Source: Candidatus Moraniibacteriota bacterium (GTDB lineage: Bacteria; Patescibacteriota; Minisyncoccia; Moranbacterales; DUUL01). From it: a stretch of 55,525 bases of DNA. The translations under genes were made by a program, and so were the position numbers. Location: contig JBFHIG010000008.1 in the NCBI GenBank assembly GCA_041596615.1, positions 1-55,525 on the forward strand, in the 5' to 3' direction. A model generated the notes under the pieces. That model was not told the DNA's origin and made no database searches. It worked only from the letters and a program-made list of their open reading frames with translations. Of this stretch, positions 51,469 to 55,525 are shown in pieces (position 1 is the first letter of the stretch; the number at the start of each line of letters is the position of its first letter).

Positions 51469-52128
51469 TTATCTTATTCCCTTTTCTTCCTTATTTTTAA
51501 TAAGCGCACTTTCAAGGTTGCCCCTAAAAGTTTCTTTATAAAAAGCGAGTAGCTCGGCTCTTTTTTCTCCGGCCTGCTTAAATACTTCGTCTAGACTGCC
51601 TGGGTCATCAGCTCTATCTCTTTCGAATAACAAGAGTTGGTCTATATGATCTTTATATAATCCTTCAATCTCATCCATTCTTTTTTCGAAATCTCCTAAA
51701 TTTACTAGTAATTCATCAACATCTGTTCCTTCAAGTTTCAACTGAGAAACAGTGCTGGTGGCAATATTCCTAGCGACTCTTAATCGCATTCGGTTTCTTT
51801 CAAGTGCACTTTTTGCTTTATTAATTCTTTCAATCTTTTCTTCTTCAGTTTGTATCACTCCTTCTGTTTTTTCTCTCTGGCCAAAGCTTTCTTTCCCCTG
51901 CCCCGGATTTCCTCCCATGGGACCCCCCTCACCATTCTGCCTTCTCTCTTCCATGAAAGCTTGTTTCTCTTCTTCGCTCATGTTTTCGATAGCTTCTATT
52001 TCTTCTGGTGATGGCATTGCCTTAGTAACAACAAAAGATGCTCCGTAGATTCCAAAAACCAAAAACAATACGGCCAAAAAATACAATTTCCTAATTTTTT
52101 TAAAAAAAATTTTTTTCTGAATTTTCAT
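51469..52128 (-). CDS. Secreted or membrane-anchored coiled-coil hypothetical protein
   Basis: Signal/TM segment, Gly-rich linker, helical C-terminus; ATG at 52128 preferred. Confidence 0.65.
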   Translation of the reverse strand: MKIQKKIFFKKIRKLYFLAVLFLVFGIYGASFVVTKAMPSPEEIEAIENMSEEEKQAFMEERRQNGEGGPMGGNPGQGKESFGQREKTEGVIQTEEEKIERINKAKSALERNRMRLRVARNIATSTVSQLKLEGTDVDELLVNLGDFEKRMDEIEGLYKDHIDQLLLFERDRADDPGSLDEVFKQAGEKRAELLAFYKETFRGNLESALIKNKEEKGIR

Positions 52129-52213
52129 TTTTATTTCATTACATAATTCTGTTTTTATTTTAGCATACATTTTAAAAAAGTTTAATCGCTAAAATCATTC
52201 GAGCTTTGGATGC

Positions 52214-52242
52214 TTGCCAAAACCCAATAATTCTGCTACAAT
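52214..52242 (+). promoter_or_regulatory. Sigma70 promoter of rpsO
   Basis: TTGCCA-N17-TACAAT with TGn extension. Confidence 0.7.
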
Positions 52243-52341
52243 GTTTTTATAATATATTGAATTAGCTTTCCTGTTCGAAGTTGAACAATTTTTTTATTCA
52301 CTGGTTGCTTAGCAACGCTACGACAGGACGGTAACAAACTC

Positions 52342-52611
52342 ATGACTCCAATAAAGAAAAAACCTGCTAAAGTTGCAAAAACTTTCAAAAGGCATGAAAA
52401 AGATTCTGGCTCTGCAGAATTCCAGATAGCCTTATTTACAGAAAAAATCAAACAACTGGTGGCTCACTTACAAACAAACCCAAAAGACAAGCATTCTCGC
52501 AGAGGTTTATTGGGAATGGTATCTCAAAGAAAGAAAATGATGAAATATTTGAAAACTACCAACGAGGAGGTTTATGCAAAAATCATCAAAAAACTAAACC
52601 TAAAAGGCTAA
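52342..52611 (+). CDS. rpsO: 30S ribosomal protein S15
   Basis: DSGSAEFQIALFT, HL..NPKDKHSRRGLL.MV..RKK..KYL. Confidence 0.97.
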   Translation: MTPIKKKPAKVAKTFKRHEKDSGSAEFQIALFTEKIKQLVAHLQTNPKDKHSRRGLLGMVSQRKKMMKYLKTTNEEVYAKIIKKLNLKG

Positions 52612-52648
52612 ACCAAGCCTTTTTTGGTTTAAACTTTAAAATAACAAA

Positions 52649-53254
52649 ATGGCAAAATTTAAAGAGCAGAGAGTTGGGGTTCTTGTCGATATTCAGAACA
52701 TGTACTACAGCGCTCGTGTTTTGTATAAGAAAAAAACAGATTTTAAAAATATTCTAGAGGTAGCAGTTTCTGAAAGAAAATTAATCAGAGCCATTGGCTA
52801 CGGAATTGCGACCGAAGAAAAAACTGAAGAGAAGTTCTTCGAATCACTTGAAAAACATGGTTATGAAATAAAATCAAAGGATTTGCAAATCTTCAAAGGT
52901 GGAATGAAAAAAGGAGACTGGGATGTTGGAATCACAATTGATGCGATTAAATTGGCCAAAAATCTTGATGTAATTGTTTTGGTTAGTGGTGATGGTGACT
53001 ATATTCCTTTAGTTAAATATCTTCAGTACAACTTTGGTGTGAGAGTTGAGATTATGGCATTTGTTGAAAGTTGTTCTTCGCAATTAATCGAAGAAGCTGA
53101 TGACTTCATAAATCTAAGCGATGGTGACAAATTTTTTATAAAAGGCAGAAGCCGAAGAGTTCCTTCCAAGAAAATTTCAGCTCAAGGAAAAAAACAGATA
53201 GTTGAGATTAATCCTGAATCTTCTTCCCCAAAAAGAACGGCTCGTATGCTCTAG
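52649..53254 (+). CDS. NYN domain protein (LabA/DUF88 family)
   Basis: VDIQNMYY, KGDWDVGITID, LVSGDGDYIP, ADDF motifs. Confidence 0.9.
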   Translation: MAKFKEQRVGVLVDIQNMYYSARVLYKKKTDFKNILEVAVSERKLIRAIGYGIATEEKTEEKFFESLEKHGYEIKSKDLQIFKGGMKKGDWDVGITIDAIKLAKNLDVIVLVSGDGDYIPLVKYLQYNFGVRVEIMAFVESCSSQLIEEADDFINLSDGDKFFIKGRSRRVPSKKISAQGKKQIVEINPESSSPKRTARML

Positions 53255-53348
53255 TTTATCTTTTACTATTTACAAAACAAATTAAAACTGCTACATTTTC
53301 TTAGGTAGCAACTTGTTGTTATTTTTATTTTTCACAAGAATCTAGAAC

Positions 53349-53466
53349 AAGAAAGATCTTAAGAAAAGGTTGATTGAAAGTTTATTGTAATTTAAGGAGA
53401 GATGGCAGAGTGGTCGAATGCGTCAGTCTTGAAAACTGAAGTGCTTTCACGAGTACCGAGGGTTCG
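53349..53466 (+). repeat. 118-bp direct repeat, copy 1 (copy 2 at 53743-53860)
   Basis: 117/118 identical; the single difference is G53387 versus A53781. Confidence 0.95.
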
Positions 53467-53511
53467 CCCCGGCATTCGCGGGGCGTCCAGCGCATGCTGG
53501 ACGAATCCATC
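53396..53511 (+). pseudogene. Disrupted tRNA-Ser(TGA) copy
   Basis: First 71 nt identical to the intact tRNA, then 37 extra nt in the T-loop, then AATCCATC; 3' acceptor strand absent. Confidence 0.85.
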
Positions 53512-53784
53512 AAACATCTAACCGAAAAGGAAATATTTTATGTATATATTCTTCTGAGCAAAAAAGACGGGAAATTCTATATTGGAAAAACTAGCGATCT
53601 GAAAAGACGCATTGCTGAACACAAGAACGGCAAAGTCAAGTCAACAAAACATAGAACACCCTTAAAGCTTATTTGCTACGAAGCATATTTATGTAAGGAA
53701 GAGGCGTCACGAAGAGAACTTTTTCTCAAAACGAGTGACGGAAAGAAAGATCTTAAGAAAAGGTTGATTGAAAGTTTATTATAA
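53494..53784 (+). CDS. Small GIY-YIG nuclease family protein
   Basis: FYVYIL...FYIG.T.DLKRRI.EH..G...ST.HR.P..L..YE...A.RRE.FLK; exact start uncertain. Confidence 0.9.
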   Translation: MLDESIKHLTEKEIFYVYILLSKKDGKFYIGKTSDLKRRIAEHKNGKVKSTKHRTPLKLICYEAYLCKEEASRRELFLKTSDGKKDLKKRLIESLL

Positions 53785-53860
53785 TTTAAGGAGAGATGGC
53801 AGAGTGGTCGAATGCGTCAGTCTTGAAAACTGAAGTGCTTTCACGAGTACCGAGGGTTCG
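53743..53860 (+). repeat. 118-bp direct repeat, copy 2
   Basis: Covers the last 14 codons (including stop) of the GIY-YIG gene, a 5-nt spacer and tRNA-Ser up to GGTTCG. Confidence 0.95.
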
Positions 53861-53876
53861 AATCCCTCTCTCTCCG
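53790..53876 (+). tRNA. tRNA-Ser(TGA)
   Basis: GGAGAGA/TCTCTCC acceptor, TCAGT-CTTGAAA-ACTGA anticodon arm, long variable arm, GAGGG-TTCGAAT-CCCTC, G discriminator; full CCA not encoded. Confidence 0.97.
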
Positions 53877-53903
53877 CCGTGAAATGTGAAATTTGAAATA
53901 TTA

Positions 53904-53987
53904 GCCGGAGTGGTGAAATTGGTATACACGCCTGCCTTAGGAGCATGTGGGATAACTCCCATGGAGGTTCGAGTCCTCTCTCCGGCA
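53904..53987 (+). tRNA. tRNA-Leu(TAG)
   Basis: GCCGGAG/CTCCGGC acceptor, CTTAGGA anticodon loop, long variable arm, GGAGG-TTCGAGT-CCTCT, A discriminator. Confidence 0.95.
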
Positions 53988-53996
53988 CACACAAAC

Positions 53997-54024
53997 AAAA
54001 AACAGGGTTTATCCTTGTTTTTTT
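53997..54024 (+). terminator. Terminator after tRNA pair
   Basis: AAAAAACAGGG/CCTTGTTTTTT hairpin with T tract. Confidence 0.65.
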
Positions 54025-54207
54025 GTTGATTTAATCTATTTTTACAAAACATAATTTGACTTGAATCATCATTCATGTTATTCTGTAATACTACATTCAG
54101 AGATTGTGTCTTTTTATAAGGCATCTCTCCGAAAAAGTGGTAAATAGTTCGTTTTTTAACCGGGTCTCAGTGTGAGACATAACCTTTTTCCTTTAGAGGA
54201 GTTCATC

Positions 54208-54687
54208 ATGGCATATTTTTTGTTCCCCGCAGAAGAGTCTGCTCCTGCAGACAAAAAAAATCCTGTAGCAATCTCCGCTTATAAAGGAGAAAAATTTTTC
54301 GCAAAACACATCCCTCAGGACCAAAAAGACCTGGGCTCCTTAGTTACGGTACACATCGTCAAAAAGGGTTTTATGTTAACCCCCAAACTTGATTTGGTGA
54401 TGAGTGTCACTGGCTTACATAAAGGAAACAAAGGTTGTTGCAGGATTCTCTTTTTAAGAGAAGACCGCAAAAAAAGTGGTGAAAGGCTAAGTTTTGTCGG
54501 AGAAGAAGCTTCGCATTTGACTCCCTGGGTCGACGCATCCAAAGGAAAAATTTTAAAAATTTCCACTGGCATAAAAAATGCTCTTATCTATAGCGACGAA
54601 CTTCTGGTAGGAAAATCCCCATTCGACACCATTGGTGTATTTCTGAAAAAATCTTTTCTACCATTTCAAAGCACATCAAGTGTATAG
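54208..54687 (+). CDS. Hypothetical protein
   Basis: GAGGAG RBS 6 nt before ATG 54208; followed by terminator. Confidence 0.55.
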   Translation: MAYFLFPAEESAPADKKNPVAISAYKGEKFFAKHIPQDQKDLGSLVTVHIVKKGFMLTPKLDLVMSVTGLHKGNKGCCRILFLREDRKKSGERLSFVGEEASHLTPWVDASKGKILKISTGIKNALIYSDELLVGKSPFDTIGVFLKKSFLPFQSTSSV

Positions 54688-54704
54688 CGCTGCCCAGCTC
54701 AACG

Positions 54705-54755
54705 AGCAACCCCACCTCGGAACAATCAATTTTATGTTCCGAGGTGTTGCTTTTT
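54705..54755 (+). terminator. Intrinsic terminator
   Basis: CACCTCGGAACA/TGTTCCGAGGTG stem followed by T tract. Confidence 0.75.
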
Positions 54756-54869
54756 AAATAATTGAAAAACTTTTCTTTTTAGGATAGACTTACCATTGTA
54801 ACTATCTGGAATTTTCATATCAAAAGAGAGATTTTAGACAATTACTTCGAAAATCATAAAATCATTCCT

Positions 54870-55525
54870 ATGTCTGCAATCGAAATCCAAGAAGTTTTCA
54901 CTCCGCTCCAACAATCTGGCACTCGCCTTGATAGACTTCTTGCGCAAAATTTCACTCAAATCCCTCGGGAAACCTTCAAGAAAGAGATTCTTAAAGGCAA
55001 TATTTTGGTAAATGGAAAAAAGGTAAAACCGAATTATGTAACAGAGGAATACGACGAAATCAAAGTAGACATTTTAATTAAAGAGCTCGCCGCCACAGCA
55101 CTTCCTGACTCATCAGTTGATATCAACGTTGTTTATGAACATCCTGATTTTTTGGTGATTGAGAAACCTGCTGGGATTTCAGTACACCCTTCGGAGAAAG
55201 AACCTCTTGGAACCTTGGCAAATGGGCTCTTGGAGAAATTTCCAGAAATAAAAGATGTCGGTGATAGTCCCATGCGTCCAGGAATAGTTCATAGGCTGGA
55301 TAAATATACTTCCGGATTGATTCTTGTGCCAAGAAATCAGTCATCTTTTTTGTTTTTCAAAAATATTTTCAAAAATCGAGAAATCACAAAAAAATATATT
55401 GCTGTTTGTTGGGGAAATTTTGCAAATAAAGAAGGCTCTGTCGATTTGATGGTAGGAAGATCTAAATCAAATTCATTACGACAATCCACCAGTAAATATG
55501 CTGATAAATTAGGAAATGCTAAAGA
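54870..55525 (+). CDS. RluA/RluD-family pseudouridine synthase (partial, runs off the window; absent from the ORF track)
   Basis: Manual translation from ATG 54870: S4-like GTRLDR...G.ILVNGK, EKPAGISVHP, GIVHRLDKYTSG, KKYIA. Confidence 0.92.
   Translation, partial: MSAIEIQEVFTPLQQSGTRLDRLLAQNFTQIPRETFKKEILKGNILVNGKKVKPNYVTEEYDEIKVDILIKELAATALPDSSVDINVVYEHPDFLVIEKPAGISVHPSEKEPLGTLANGLLEKFPEIKDVGDSPMRPGIVHRLDKYTSGLILVPRNQSSFLFFKNIFKNREITKKYIAVCWGNFANKEGSVDLMVGRSKSNSLRQSTSKYADKLGNAK

Follow-up and report, generated by a model that had tools for sequence, protein, structure and literature searches.

Background

Among the systems described so far, the Ssn nucleases with their hairpin repeats are the closest to the locus analysed here. 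According to the accessible part of the paper by Chenal et al. (Nat Commun 2025, PMC11893778), these enzymes bind a directional hairpin and cut single-stranded DNA (ssDNA), but neither dsDNA nor RNA, just upstream of it, and their genes are often flanked by hairpin repeats of the NTS or SRM kind. A second report, again as far as its accessible part goes, describes GIY-YIG ORFs in the rRNA genes of CPR bacteria, where they lie in non-intron insertions, mostly at the tops or bases of stem-loops (PMC11270868). In contrast to our locus, that part deals with rRNA only (the word 'tRNA' occurs 0 times in it), and it contains neither hairpin pairs nor duplicated gene parts. Inverted pairs of palindromes and a hairpin-directed enzyme are likewise found in REP/BIME elements with their RAYT proteins and in IS200/IS605 elements, and an insertion of the IS200/IS605 type, set by a short fixed sequence and made without a classical duplication, would fit the position of our hairpins directly 3' of TTCG; the difference lies in the enzyme, which is a Y1 (HUH) transposase in those systems and a hydrolytic GIY-YIG nuclease in ours.

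Selfish GIY-YIG genes among tRNA genes are known as well, since SegB in the T4 tRNA gene cluster is a free-standing GIY-YIG homing endonuclease gene, and homing enzymes have about 200-250 aa and carry DNA-binding domains. Our locus resembles such homing genes in this setting and in having both empty and filled alleles, but its protein has 83-96 aa, and pairs of hairpins and a partial duplication of the tRNA are foreign to the homing system. UPF0213/YhbQ proteins, which are relatives of Slx1, match the protein encoded at our locus in size and in the G-K-x-K-x-T-K/R motif region; to our knowledge, they are not associated with hairpins or tRNA genes. Full-text searches of the literature returned no description of GIY-YIG genes, or of pairs of hairpins, residing in tRNA genes of bacteria, and in the accessible part of PMC11893778 a term search showed that tRNA is absent from the main text and occurs in the supplements in gene annotations only.

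Here we analyse a hairpin pair in a stretch of 55,525 nt from a Candidatus Moraniibacteriota bacterium (contig JBFHIG010000008.1; hereafter the window, whose positions we use throughout). A sequence-only reading of the window had described two GC-rich hairpins in the T-loop of a tRNA gene next to a GIY-YIG nuclease gene. All genes, repeats and fragments of the window given below lie on the + strand, and its hairpins are given without a strand.

Results

A truncated tRNA-Ser(UGA) copy hosts the hairpins

In the window, the resident leader of tRNA-Ser(UGA) (53255-53335), which ends in TTTTTCAC, is separated by 454 nt (53336-53789) from the intact tRNA-Ser(UGA) gene (53790-53878), the latter being called by ARAGORN and scoring 65.2 bits with the Rfam tRNA model; the tRNA-Leu(UAG) gene (53904-53988) follows as the unchanged downstream neighbour. 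Within the 454 nt, a filler of 13 nt comes first, then 47 nt that are the tail of a previous unit, and finally one complete unit of 394 nt. They contain the first copy (53349-53466) of a 118-nt direct repeat, while the second copy (53743-53860), 99% identical to it at a spacing of 394 nt, runs into the intact tRNA. Each copy comprises the final 42 nt of the GIY-YIG ORF including its stop codon, a 5-nt spacer and the 5' 71 nt of tRNA-Ser, which in copy 2 are those of the intact gene. In copy 1, the stop-containing remnant of the GIY-YIG 3' end occupies 53349-53390 (tblastn aligns 53325-53387 to nuclease residues 76-96), and a 5-nt spacer leads to the tRNA part (53396-53466), which runs from the 5' strand of the acceptor stem to TTCG of the T-loop. 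Between the two copies lie the hairpins, the sequence AATCC, a short AT-rich leader and the 96-aa ORF.

The sequence-only reading had taken the host of the hairpins to be a tRNA T-loop. The hairpins do sit at the exact centre of a T-loop, but their host is a truncated 5' pseudo-copy of tRNA-Ser(UGA) and not a tRNA. The Rfam tRNA model matches the fragment (53396-53471) with 30.1 bits against a gathering score of 29, ARAGORN calls no tRNA at it, and ARAGORN still finds none there after in-silico removal of the pair. Two candidate explanations were discarded: a tRNA intron (bulge-helix-bulge or group I), as the 3' T-stem and acceptor strands are missing and no tRNA results from removal of the pair, and an integrase-type tRNA island, as the gain is 454 nt with one 96-aa ORF and the displaced piece is the 5' part of the tRNA, whereas such islands have a recombinase and displace a 3' fragment (attR). 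When 53200-54100 were scanned with Rfam at E up to 10, only tRNA matches reached their gathering score and the matches included no intron family, and no integrase was noticed among the ORFs of 52000-55525. Since the intact tRNA-Ser gene stays in place downstream, the insertion is tolerated. Two further tRNA-Ser genes of this genome, on contigs C5 and C4, have a comparable module in which the D-loop holds a different hairpin pair.

The hairpin pair begins where the fragment ends in TTCG (53463-53466). Positions 53465-53503 read CG-CCCCGGCATTCGCGGGG-CG-TCCAGCGCATGCTGGA-CG, with TT on the 5' side and AATCC on the 3' side, so the layout TT-CG-hairpin-CG-hairpin-CG-AATCC over 53463-53508 is as first described. 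In hairpin 1 (53465-53485), the core CCCCGGCATTCGCGGGG (53467-53483) is followed by CG at 53484-53485; in hairpin 2 (53484-53503), the core TCCAGCGCATGCTGGA (53486-53501) is followed by CG at 53502-53503, and the flanking CGs double as the base pairs closing each stem. The AATCC (53504-53508) represents the second (3') half of the T-loop together with two T-stem nucleotides (compare 53861-53865 in the intact gene), and the tRNA similarity stops with it. Deleting 53467-53503 (37 nt, that is, 19 + 18) yields TTCGAATCC, the T-loop of the intact tRNA-Ser(UGA), which confirms the earlier statement that removal of the two units restores the loop. It had further been stated that both loops begin with GCAT; the apices are better read as C-ATTC-G in hairpin 1, with a 1-nt bulge, and C-GCAT-G in hairpin 2, in which form they fit the family motifs CATNCG and CGNATG, respectively, introduced below. 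Each strand, taken as ssDNA, forms two neighbouring hairpins with an energy of -15.4 kcal/mol. The Z-scores are -3.07 and -3.43 relative to shuffled versions of this GC-rich 48-mer that keep its dinucleotides, of which 1 in 200 per strand folds equally well.

Each exact hairpin was found once in the 1.30-Mb assembly (31 contigs, 35% GC; genome 77% complete) by both exact and relaxed counts, and the covariance model described below also has one site there, so that a dispersed, REP-like repeat, as had been proposed, is not supported in this genome. REP/BIME elements with a RAYT, which have many dispersed extragenic copies, were therefore rejected as candidates, the hairpins being single-copy in this genome. 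A search with Y1_Tnp (PF01797) gave one sub-threshold match in this 77%-complete genome (22.6 versus 23 bits), on contig C1 and unlinked to the locus.

Empty sites in congeners and support for the assembly

The sequence-only reading had asked for a genome-wide count of the two hairpins and for empty sites in relatives. The hairpins are unique in their own genome, and empty sites exist in relatives. All three same-genus genomes (G001, G002 and G003) have the leader, an intact tRNA-Ser(UGA) and tRNA-Leu(UAG), and none of 53336-53789, as seen from BLAST and from comparison of the raw sequences; a gene with an NYN domain is another neighbour common to the window locus and these three genomes. In each of them, the leader ends in the same TTTTTCAC or a close variant and is directly joined to the tRNA, and in the BLAST comparison with G001, position 1033 of the query is joined to 1491 with 4 nt between. 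Neither G001 nor G002 contains a match to the window nuclease anywhere, while G003 has two matches and the window genome (G000) has four. These comparisons indicate that the cassette was gained by this lineage after its split from the congeners, and that the gain comprises 454 nt, including the duplicated 5' part of the tRNA and the nuclease gene, beyond the 37 nt of the hairpins.

The arrangement in the window is not an assembly artefact. Contigs of sequencing runs X1 and X2 match 53349-53772 exactly, and a 424-nt contig from another study (run X4) covers 53413-53836 at 95% identity with the hairpins unchanged. In contigs of four DNA runs over 52900-54300, we found no excised, empty or circular form, nor any joint lacking the hairpins, the unit of 394 nt or the insert as a whole, a negative result that says nothing on mobility since contigs drop rare variants.

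A single-domain GIY-YIG nuclease gene

The ORF downstream of the pair (53494-53784) encodes a single-domain GIY-YIG nuclease, with PF01541 matching residues 15-84 of 96 (E 2.1e-17); apart from this match, there is one overlapping weak match to T5orf172. No NCBIfam model scored over its cut-off, TIGR01453 reaching 27.4 bits versus 56, and we rejected a GIY-YIG homing endonuclease on this score and on the ORF size of 96 aa. In an alignment of 15 sequences from the family and outgroups, Y18, Y29, G31, R39, E75 and K79 are invariant and H43 is nearly so, and the window protein keeps these catalytic-type residues. Its best PDB matches are UPF0213 proteins, namely, 1zg2 (BH0048; E 3.1e-10) and 1ywl (EF2693; E 2.6e-06), and its closest named relatives come from Candidatus Moranbacteria and other CPR groups. 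The family is multi-copy in this order of small genomes, matching in 33 of 41 related genomes, with up to 18 matches per genome among those listed.

As the sequence-only reading had noted, the only conventional in-frame start of this ORF is the ATG at 53494-53496 inside hairpin 2, from which the protein has 96 aa. The start of the family, in contrast, is at residue 14 (53533), from which it has 83 aa: a methionine stands at or beside window residue 14 in 11 of the 12 other CPR family members aligned, the reference for the twelfth being cut one codon short. At this position (53533-53535) the window has ATA and the 95%-identical strain of run X4 has ATG (53535 A>G), so the 13-codon extension to the hairpin ATG is peculiar to the window copy; moreover, translation from the equivalent hairpin ATG would soon meet a stop codon in the homologue loci L002 and L003. 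The ATG within hairpin 2 is thus probably incidental, which does not favour the translational brake suggested previously, and the window copy of the cassette is probably decaying, judging from the ATA in place of the family start codon.

For comparison with Ssn proteins, we located genomes with the published NTS motif and searched four of them for GIY-YIG genes. In Thiohalobacter, a 96-aa GIY-YIG gene has inverted NTS-type hairpins on both sides and is Ssn-type by this context, there being no database label; the window protein is 38% identical to its product (E 4e-13) and does not have the C-terminal tail seen in two proteins from NTS genomes (alignment A4). Neisseria lactamica was rejected as a source of an SsnA reference, because its only small GIY-YIG ORF is UPF0213-like (28% identical to the window protein, E 1e-06) and no NTS-core palindrome occurs within 1.5 kb of it. 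Our locus shares with the Ssn system, as far as the accessible part of the paper describes it, a single-domain GIY-YIG protein of about 90-100 aa with GC-rich, hairpin-forming repeats by its gene, and also the arrangement of hairpins as inverted pairs, the loops at Thiohalobacter locus L215 (GCAG and CTGC) being complementary. On the other hand, the NTS core has 0 matches in the window with up to 3 mismatches allowed, the hairpin pair lies only 5' of the gene, whose 3' neighbour is a tRNA, and the cassette carries a duplicated piece of that tRNA. In addition, every copy of the pair that we found is in a T-loop-like sequence, usually a fragment of a tRNA gene, rather than dispersed over the genome. 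The Ssn nucleases with their hairpin repeats are the closest described system, from which our locus differs in its T-loop address, the tRNA duplication and the single copy in this genome.

Recurrence of the pair in related genomes

Next to close homologues of the nuclease we see the same layout: a tRNA fragment, 5' and reaching as far as TTCG, is followed by both hairpins and A(A/G)TCC, and these in turn by the nuclease gene and a complete tRNA. A hairpin pair at TTCG^A(A/G)TCC together with a nuclease gene is seen in other genera and at tRNA-Ser, tRNA-Gln and tRNA-Tyr, and by reading we found a T-loop pair beside the nuclease gene at 12 of 18 homologue loci. Sequential insertion of the hairpins, as suggested earlier, is not supported as a recent event at this locus: as position-specific homologues of both hairpins are found together in other genera and by other tRNAs, the pair arrived as a unit. 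Insertion at the centre of TTCGAA, by contrast, is supported, with the pair plugging TTCG^AATCC.

We built a covariance model (R1) from 14 copies of the pair (alignment A1). It matches 15 of the 41 related genomes, with exactly one site in the window genome, and most copies of the pair sit at TTCG^A(A/G)TCC, usually in a tRNA-gene fragment beside an intact copy; as T-loop flanks, CG punctuation and stems are all part of R1, the figures on position, punctuation and pairing are partly built in. The 36 stronger R1 sites were used for counting, 14 further flank regions were added, and seven weaker or shorter R1 matches were left out of the 36 (three in G022 and one each at G039, G006, G009:C17 and G015:C48:4068), four of the seven having been inspected. 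An intact tRNA lies on the same strand within 500 nt at 30 of the 36 sites and on the other strand at 2, and the flanks examined contain none at the remaining 4. Eight sites are of the window's type, with a 5' fragment upstream of the intact tRNA, and 22 have a 3' fragment downstream of it. A GIY-YIG match lies within 400 nt at 14 of the 36 sites, including 6/8 of the window type and 6/22 of the 3'-fragment type, whereas the other 22 sites have none, usually with at least 1 kb examined on each side. The tie between the hairpins and a GIY-YIG nuclease gene is upheld, although the linkage is partial. Co-occurrence by genome does not discriminate, the nuclease family being present in 14 of 15 genomes with the pair and in 19 of 26 without it; the correlation with GIY-YIG presence once proposed as a check carries no information here, with a family so close to ubiquitous.

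Once the pair is taken out, ARAGORN calls a tRNA at no more than 4 of 46 sites. The remnant of the tRNA beyond the pair measures 4-9 nt in the 5' fragments read, and the 3' fragments read begin a few nt before TTCG; given this variation, we rejected a single fixed cut distance. One variant of the pair occurs in G015 at four sites by several different tRNA genes (L002:2113, L076 and two at L227), so the pair has spread within a genome, and tandem arrays were seen in L002 and L046. Three single-hairpin forms carry a filler (TACA, GTTTAC or CTTTG) in place of the partner, and from these sequences they look like deletion derivatives.

Conservation of the stems and apices

In a model-fitted alignment of both strands of about 30 interrelated sites (A2), standard pairs fill 94.4% of the cells versus 72.0% after shuffling, a level that 0 of 500 shuffles reach; both sides have changed in 13 of the 14 stem pairs, and controls with slid partners are 30-47% paired. 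When one strand per site was taken (46 sites, 43 distinct rows), 552 of 602 cells were Watson-Crick, 13 were G-T and 37 were other. With G-T pairs this scarce, the constraint is more likely to act on the two strands of DNA than on a single RNA.

The stem sequences vary freely, but the apices do not: hairpin 1 has YATNCR in 35 of 43 copies, and hairpin 2 has YGNATR in 33 of 43. Since CATNCG and CGNATG are mutually reverse complementary, both strands have the same structure, each reading TTCG-hairpin(ATNC)-CG-hairpin(GNAT)-CG-AAYCC, and R1 scores both strands of every site. It follows from the complementary apices that a single type of hairpin is present twice in the pair, as diverged copies facing opposite ways. 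CG stands at the first point in 35/43 copies, at the middle in 35/43 and at the last in 32/43, and non-CG punctuation is CA or TG with the exception of one AG. With CG at all three points in 27 of the 43 distinct copies, the CG flanks noticed in the window prove to be a family feature, bearing in mind that the copies were found with a model encoding this punctuation. Taken over these alignments, the hairpin pair behaves as one conserved unit.

Discussion

The hairpin pair as the proposed site of a selfish cassette

On balance, we consider the pair to be the DNA site of a selfish nuclease-hairpin cassette that lodges in tRNA T-loops and leaves an intact tRNA behind. With similar confidence, we would place it at the left junction of this cassette, which would consist of the hairpin pair, the 5-nt T-loop remnant, the GIY-YIG gene and the duplicated 5' part of the tRNA. 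The cassette looks like an undescribed kind of selfish DNA that is common in ultra-small (CPR) bacteria. By analogy with Ssn, the nuclease would recognise the hairpin pair at the DNA level as its cognate site, and since the two hairpins are inverted copies, one forward hairpin is offered per strand. Cleavage of opposite strands is predicted a few nt beyond the pair, which is where the fragments of the tRNA stop. The arms of tRNA genes are natural GC-rich hairpins, and the T-arm in particular offers a near-universal sequence in AT-rich genomes, so the broken ends could invade other tRNA genes and the cassette might spread by break repair or by recombination through T-arm sequence; the only products to survive would be those that regenerate an intact tRNA. 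Were a deletion to occur between the two 5' parts, duplicated over about 70 nt or more, the nuclease gene would go and solo fragments would remain, which may be why most sites have no nuclease gene.

One feature calls for an additional step. The left edge of the duplication lies inside the nuclease-gene remnant, which meets the resident leader precisely where position +1 of the tRNA would be. A single T-loop insertion does not explain such a join, so that a tandem or rolling source and an illegitimate join would be needed. Several observations also count against the selfish-cassette reading, namely, that the window genome has a single copy of the pair and a nuclease gene without the family ATG, that 22 of the 36 pair sites have no GIY-YIG match nearby, and that the link between nuclease and hairpins is drawn by analogy and co-occurrence by genome is non-discriminating. 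To these may be added that the best PDB matches of the nuclease are UPF0213 proteins, that it has no C-terminal tail like that of the two NTS-genome proteins, and that contigs of the four runs showed no excised, empty or circular form.

Alternative explanations

A more far-reaching proposal, which we regard as possible but rather unlikely, is a new class of ssDNA-acting element in which a hairpin unit and its nuclease target the apical loops of the hairpins into which tRNA genes fold as ssDNA, and transpose by a hydrolytic nuclease plus host repair, with no transposase. As the T-loop core TTCGAA is palindromic, it presents the same site, 3' of TTCG, on both strands, and one strand-specific insertion per strand would give rise to a symmetric pair punctuated by CG. 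The DNA from a plugged T-loop to the next intact one (394 nt here, with the nuclease gene and part of a tRNA) would then move as a unit, and every insertion would regenerate an intact tRNA.

Somewhat less probable still is that two independent REP- or MITE-like palindromes entered, each at the CG of TTCGAA with a 2-bp duplication of CG, and that the nuclease cassette is merely adjacent, in line with the sequential insertion first put forward. Such palindromes would account for the CG at all three points in so many distinct copies and for the 22 sites whose pairs have no nuclease gene nearby, as well as for the fact that pairs of quite different sequence hold the same position, and GIY-YIG homing endonucleases such as I-TevI leave 2-nt 3' overhangs. 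The flanking CGs are, however, also simply the base pairs closing the stems, and the three single-hairpin forms, whose existence speaks for independent palindromes, carry filler in the partner's place, as after a deletion. A palindromic TTCGAA that received one insertion 3' of TTCG per strand would give exactly hairpin(ATNC)-CG-hairpin(GNAT)-CG, the layout in the window, and a two-step origin of the pair is possible in this sense. Yet position-specific homologues of both hairpins in other genera indicate that the pair predates the insertion in the window, and the gain is 454 nt with a nuclease gene instead of 37 nt; each exact hairpin is also unique in this genome, where copies at other kinds of site lay outside a search with R1, which encodes T-loop flanks.

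We find it hard to credit that the pair acts at the RNA level, as a 5'-UTR structure in a transcript from the tRNA promoter that would stabilise the mRNA, mark a site of processing or slow the translation of a toxic nuclease, its start codon being sequestered in hairpin 2. The pair does follow the resident tRNA leader and precede the ORF, hairpin 2 holds the one conventional in-frame start that the window copy has, and at 6 of the 8 window-type sites the nuclease gene is within 100 nt of the pair, mostly just downstream. Nevertheless, 22 of the 36 sites are 3' fragments downstream of tRNAs, 16 of which have no nuclease match nearby, and the hairpin ATG is not a conserved start. G-T pairs, at 13 of 602 cells, are no commoner than other mismatches, and both strands have the same structure.

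Equally remote is inert debris of recombination or repair at a tRNA hot spot, for example from old integration or excision, with no function and no link to the nuclease. In its favour, integration into tRNA genes is a classic event, the copy of the tRNA here is incomplete, the ATG of the nuclease gene is gone and this genome has one copy. Debris does not explain, however, why the same two hairpins recur in 15 of 41 genomes and at several tRNA species, for the most part at a single point of the T-loop, nor does it explain compensatory stem changes and conserved, mutually complementary apex motifs. In addition, no integrase was noticed in the ORFs of 52000-55525.

Implications

Plugged tRNA fragments such as the one in the window affect the annotation of tRNAs in CPR genomes, where the fragment passes the Rfam gathering score by 30.1 versus 29 bits, and the repeats can break assemblies. 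If the hairpin pair is the cognate site of the nuclease, the locus would be a natural example of an enzyme plus its site from a branch of single-domain GIY-YIG proteins that nobody has tested, and such enzymes are wanted as site-specific cutters of ssDNA. It would also show how selfish DNA can settle in tRNA genes that are both essential and single-copy, in genomes as small as about 1 Mb, the host surviving because the interrupted gene is rebuilt by the element.

Modules analogous to that of the window

Beyond the window itself, the same genome assembly has an analogous module at each of two further tRNA-Ser genes (GCU and CGA), at 37770-38179 of contig C5 and at 46230-46449 of contig C4. These two modules share the order tRNA 5' fragment, two hairpins, GIY-YIG gene and intact tRNA, with a 5' fragment of 13-14 nt broken in the D-loop and hairpins of 15 nt each (CCAGCC-CAA-GGCTGG and TCCGCC-TAG-GGCGGA). 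The GIY-YIG gene is intact in the C5 module and has an internal deletion in the C4 module, where the remnant has its C-terminus in common with the window gene (92% over 13 aa). At the position of the nuclease family start codon, the window gene reads ATA (53533-53535); in a contig of 95% identity that comes from a separate study, the substitution 53535 A>G turns this codon into ATG.

A 13-nt match to the tRNA-Ser 5' end (CGGAGAGATGCCT) also lies on the minus strand of the window downstream of tRNA-Leu (54119-54135), but a similar sequence occurs in the congener G001, which shows that the match does not belong to the insertion. Elsewhere in the assembly, ARAGORN calls on contig C5 a tRNA with a four-base anticodon (ttca; complement 82120-82195) to which it assigns no definite identity, and a 171-aa open frame on contig C1 (58084-58308) matches Y1_Tnp (PF01797) slightly under the cut-off (22.6 vs 23 bits).

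Hairpins at other loci

In silico removal of the hairpin pair at 840-960 of L058, a locus from a related genome (G031:C110), yields a full-length tRNA-Arg(GCG), and no intact copy of this tRNA is present on the same 1.1-kb contig; this could be a gene that was plugged only recently. A third hairpin type, with the sequence CTGCCTGCC-GGCA-GGCAGGC or a variant of it, was found at four other loci (L002:2165-2210, L054, L068 and L076), inserted after AATCC(C) in the T-stem 3' strand of several 3' tRNA fragments. In Thiohalobacter (L215:1240-1400), a 14-nt unit that includes CGTCATTCCCGCC is repeated in tandem about nine times next to the NTS hairpins that flank the small GIY-YIG gene.

Nuclease copies in and beside protein genes

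The fourth GIY-YIG copy of the window's genome (C23:10886-11119) has no tRNA near it and apparently splits a small AbrB/SpoVT-like gene, a host gene that is likewise split at the related loci L008, L010, L013 and L014. Other family members in related genomes (L012-L019), located between or inside protein genes, are bracketed by inverted repeats of 12-25 nt (for example, CACCCTGTTAAATAA ... TTATTTAACAGGGT), the 3' arm of which lies within the ORF end. At L006 (1200-1900), about 105 nt from the 3' end of a host protein gene are directly duplicated on either side of a GIY-YIG insertion, an arrangement that corresponds, in a protein gene, to the tRNA duplication.
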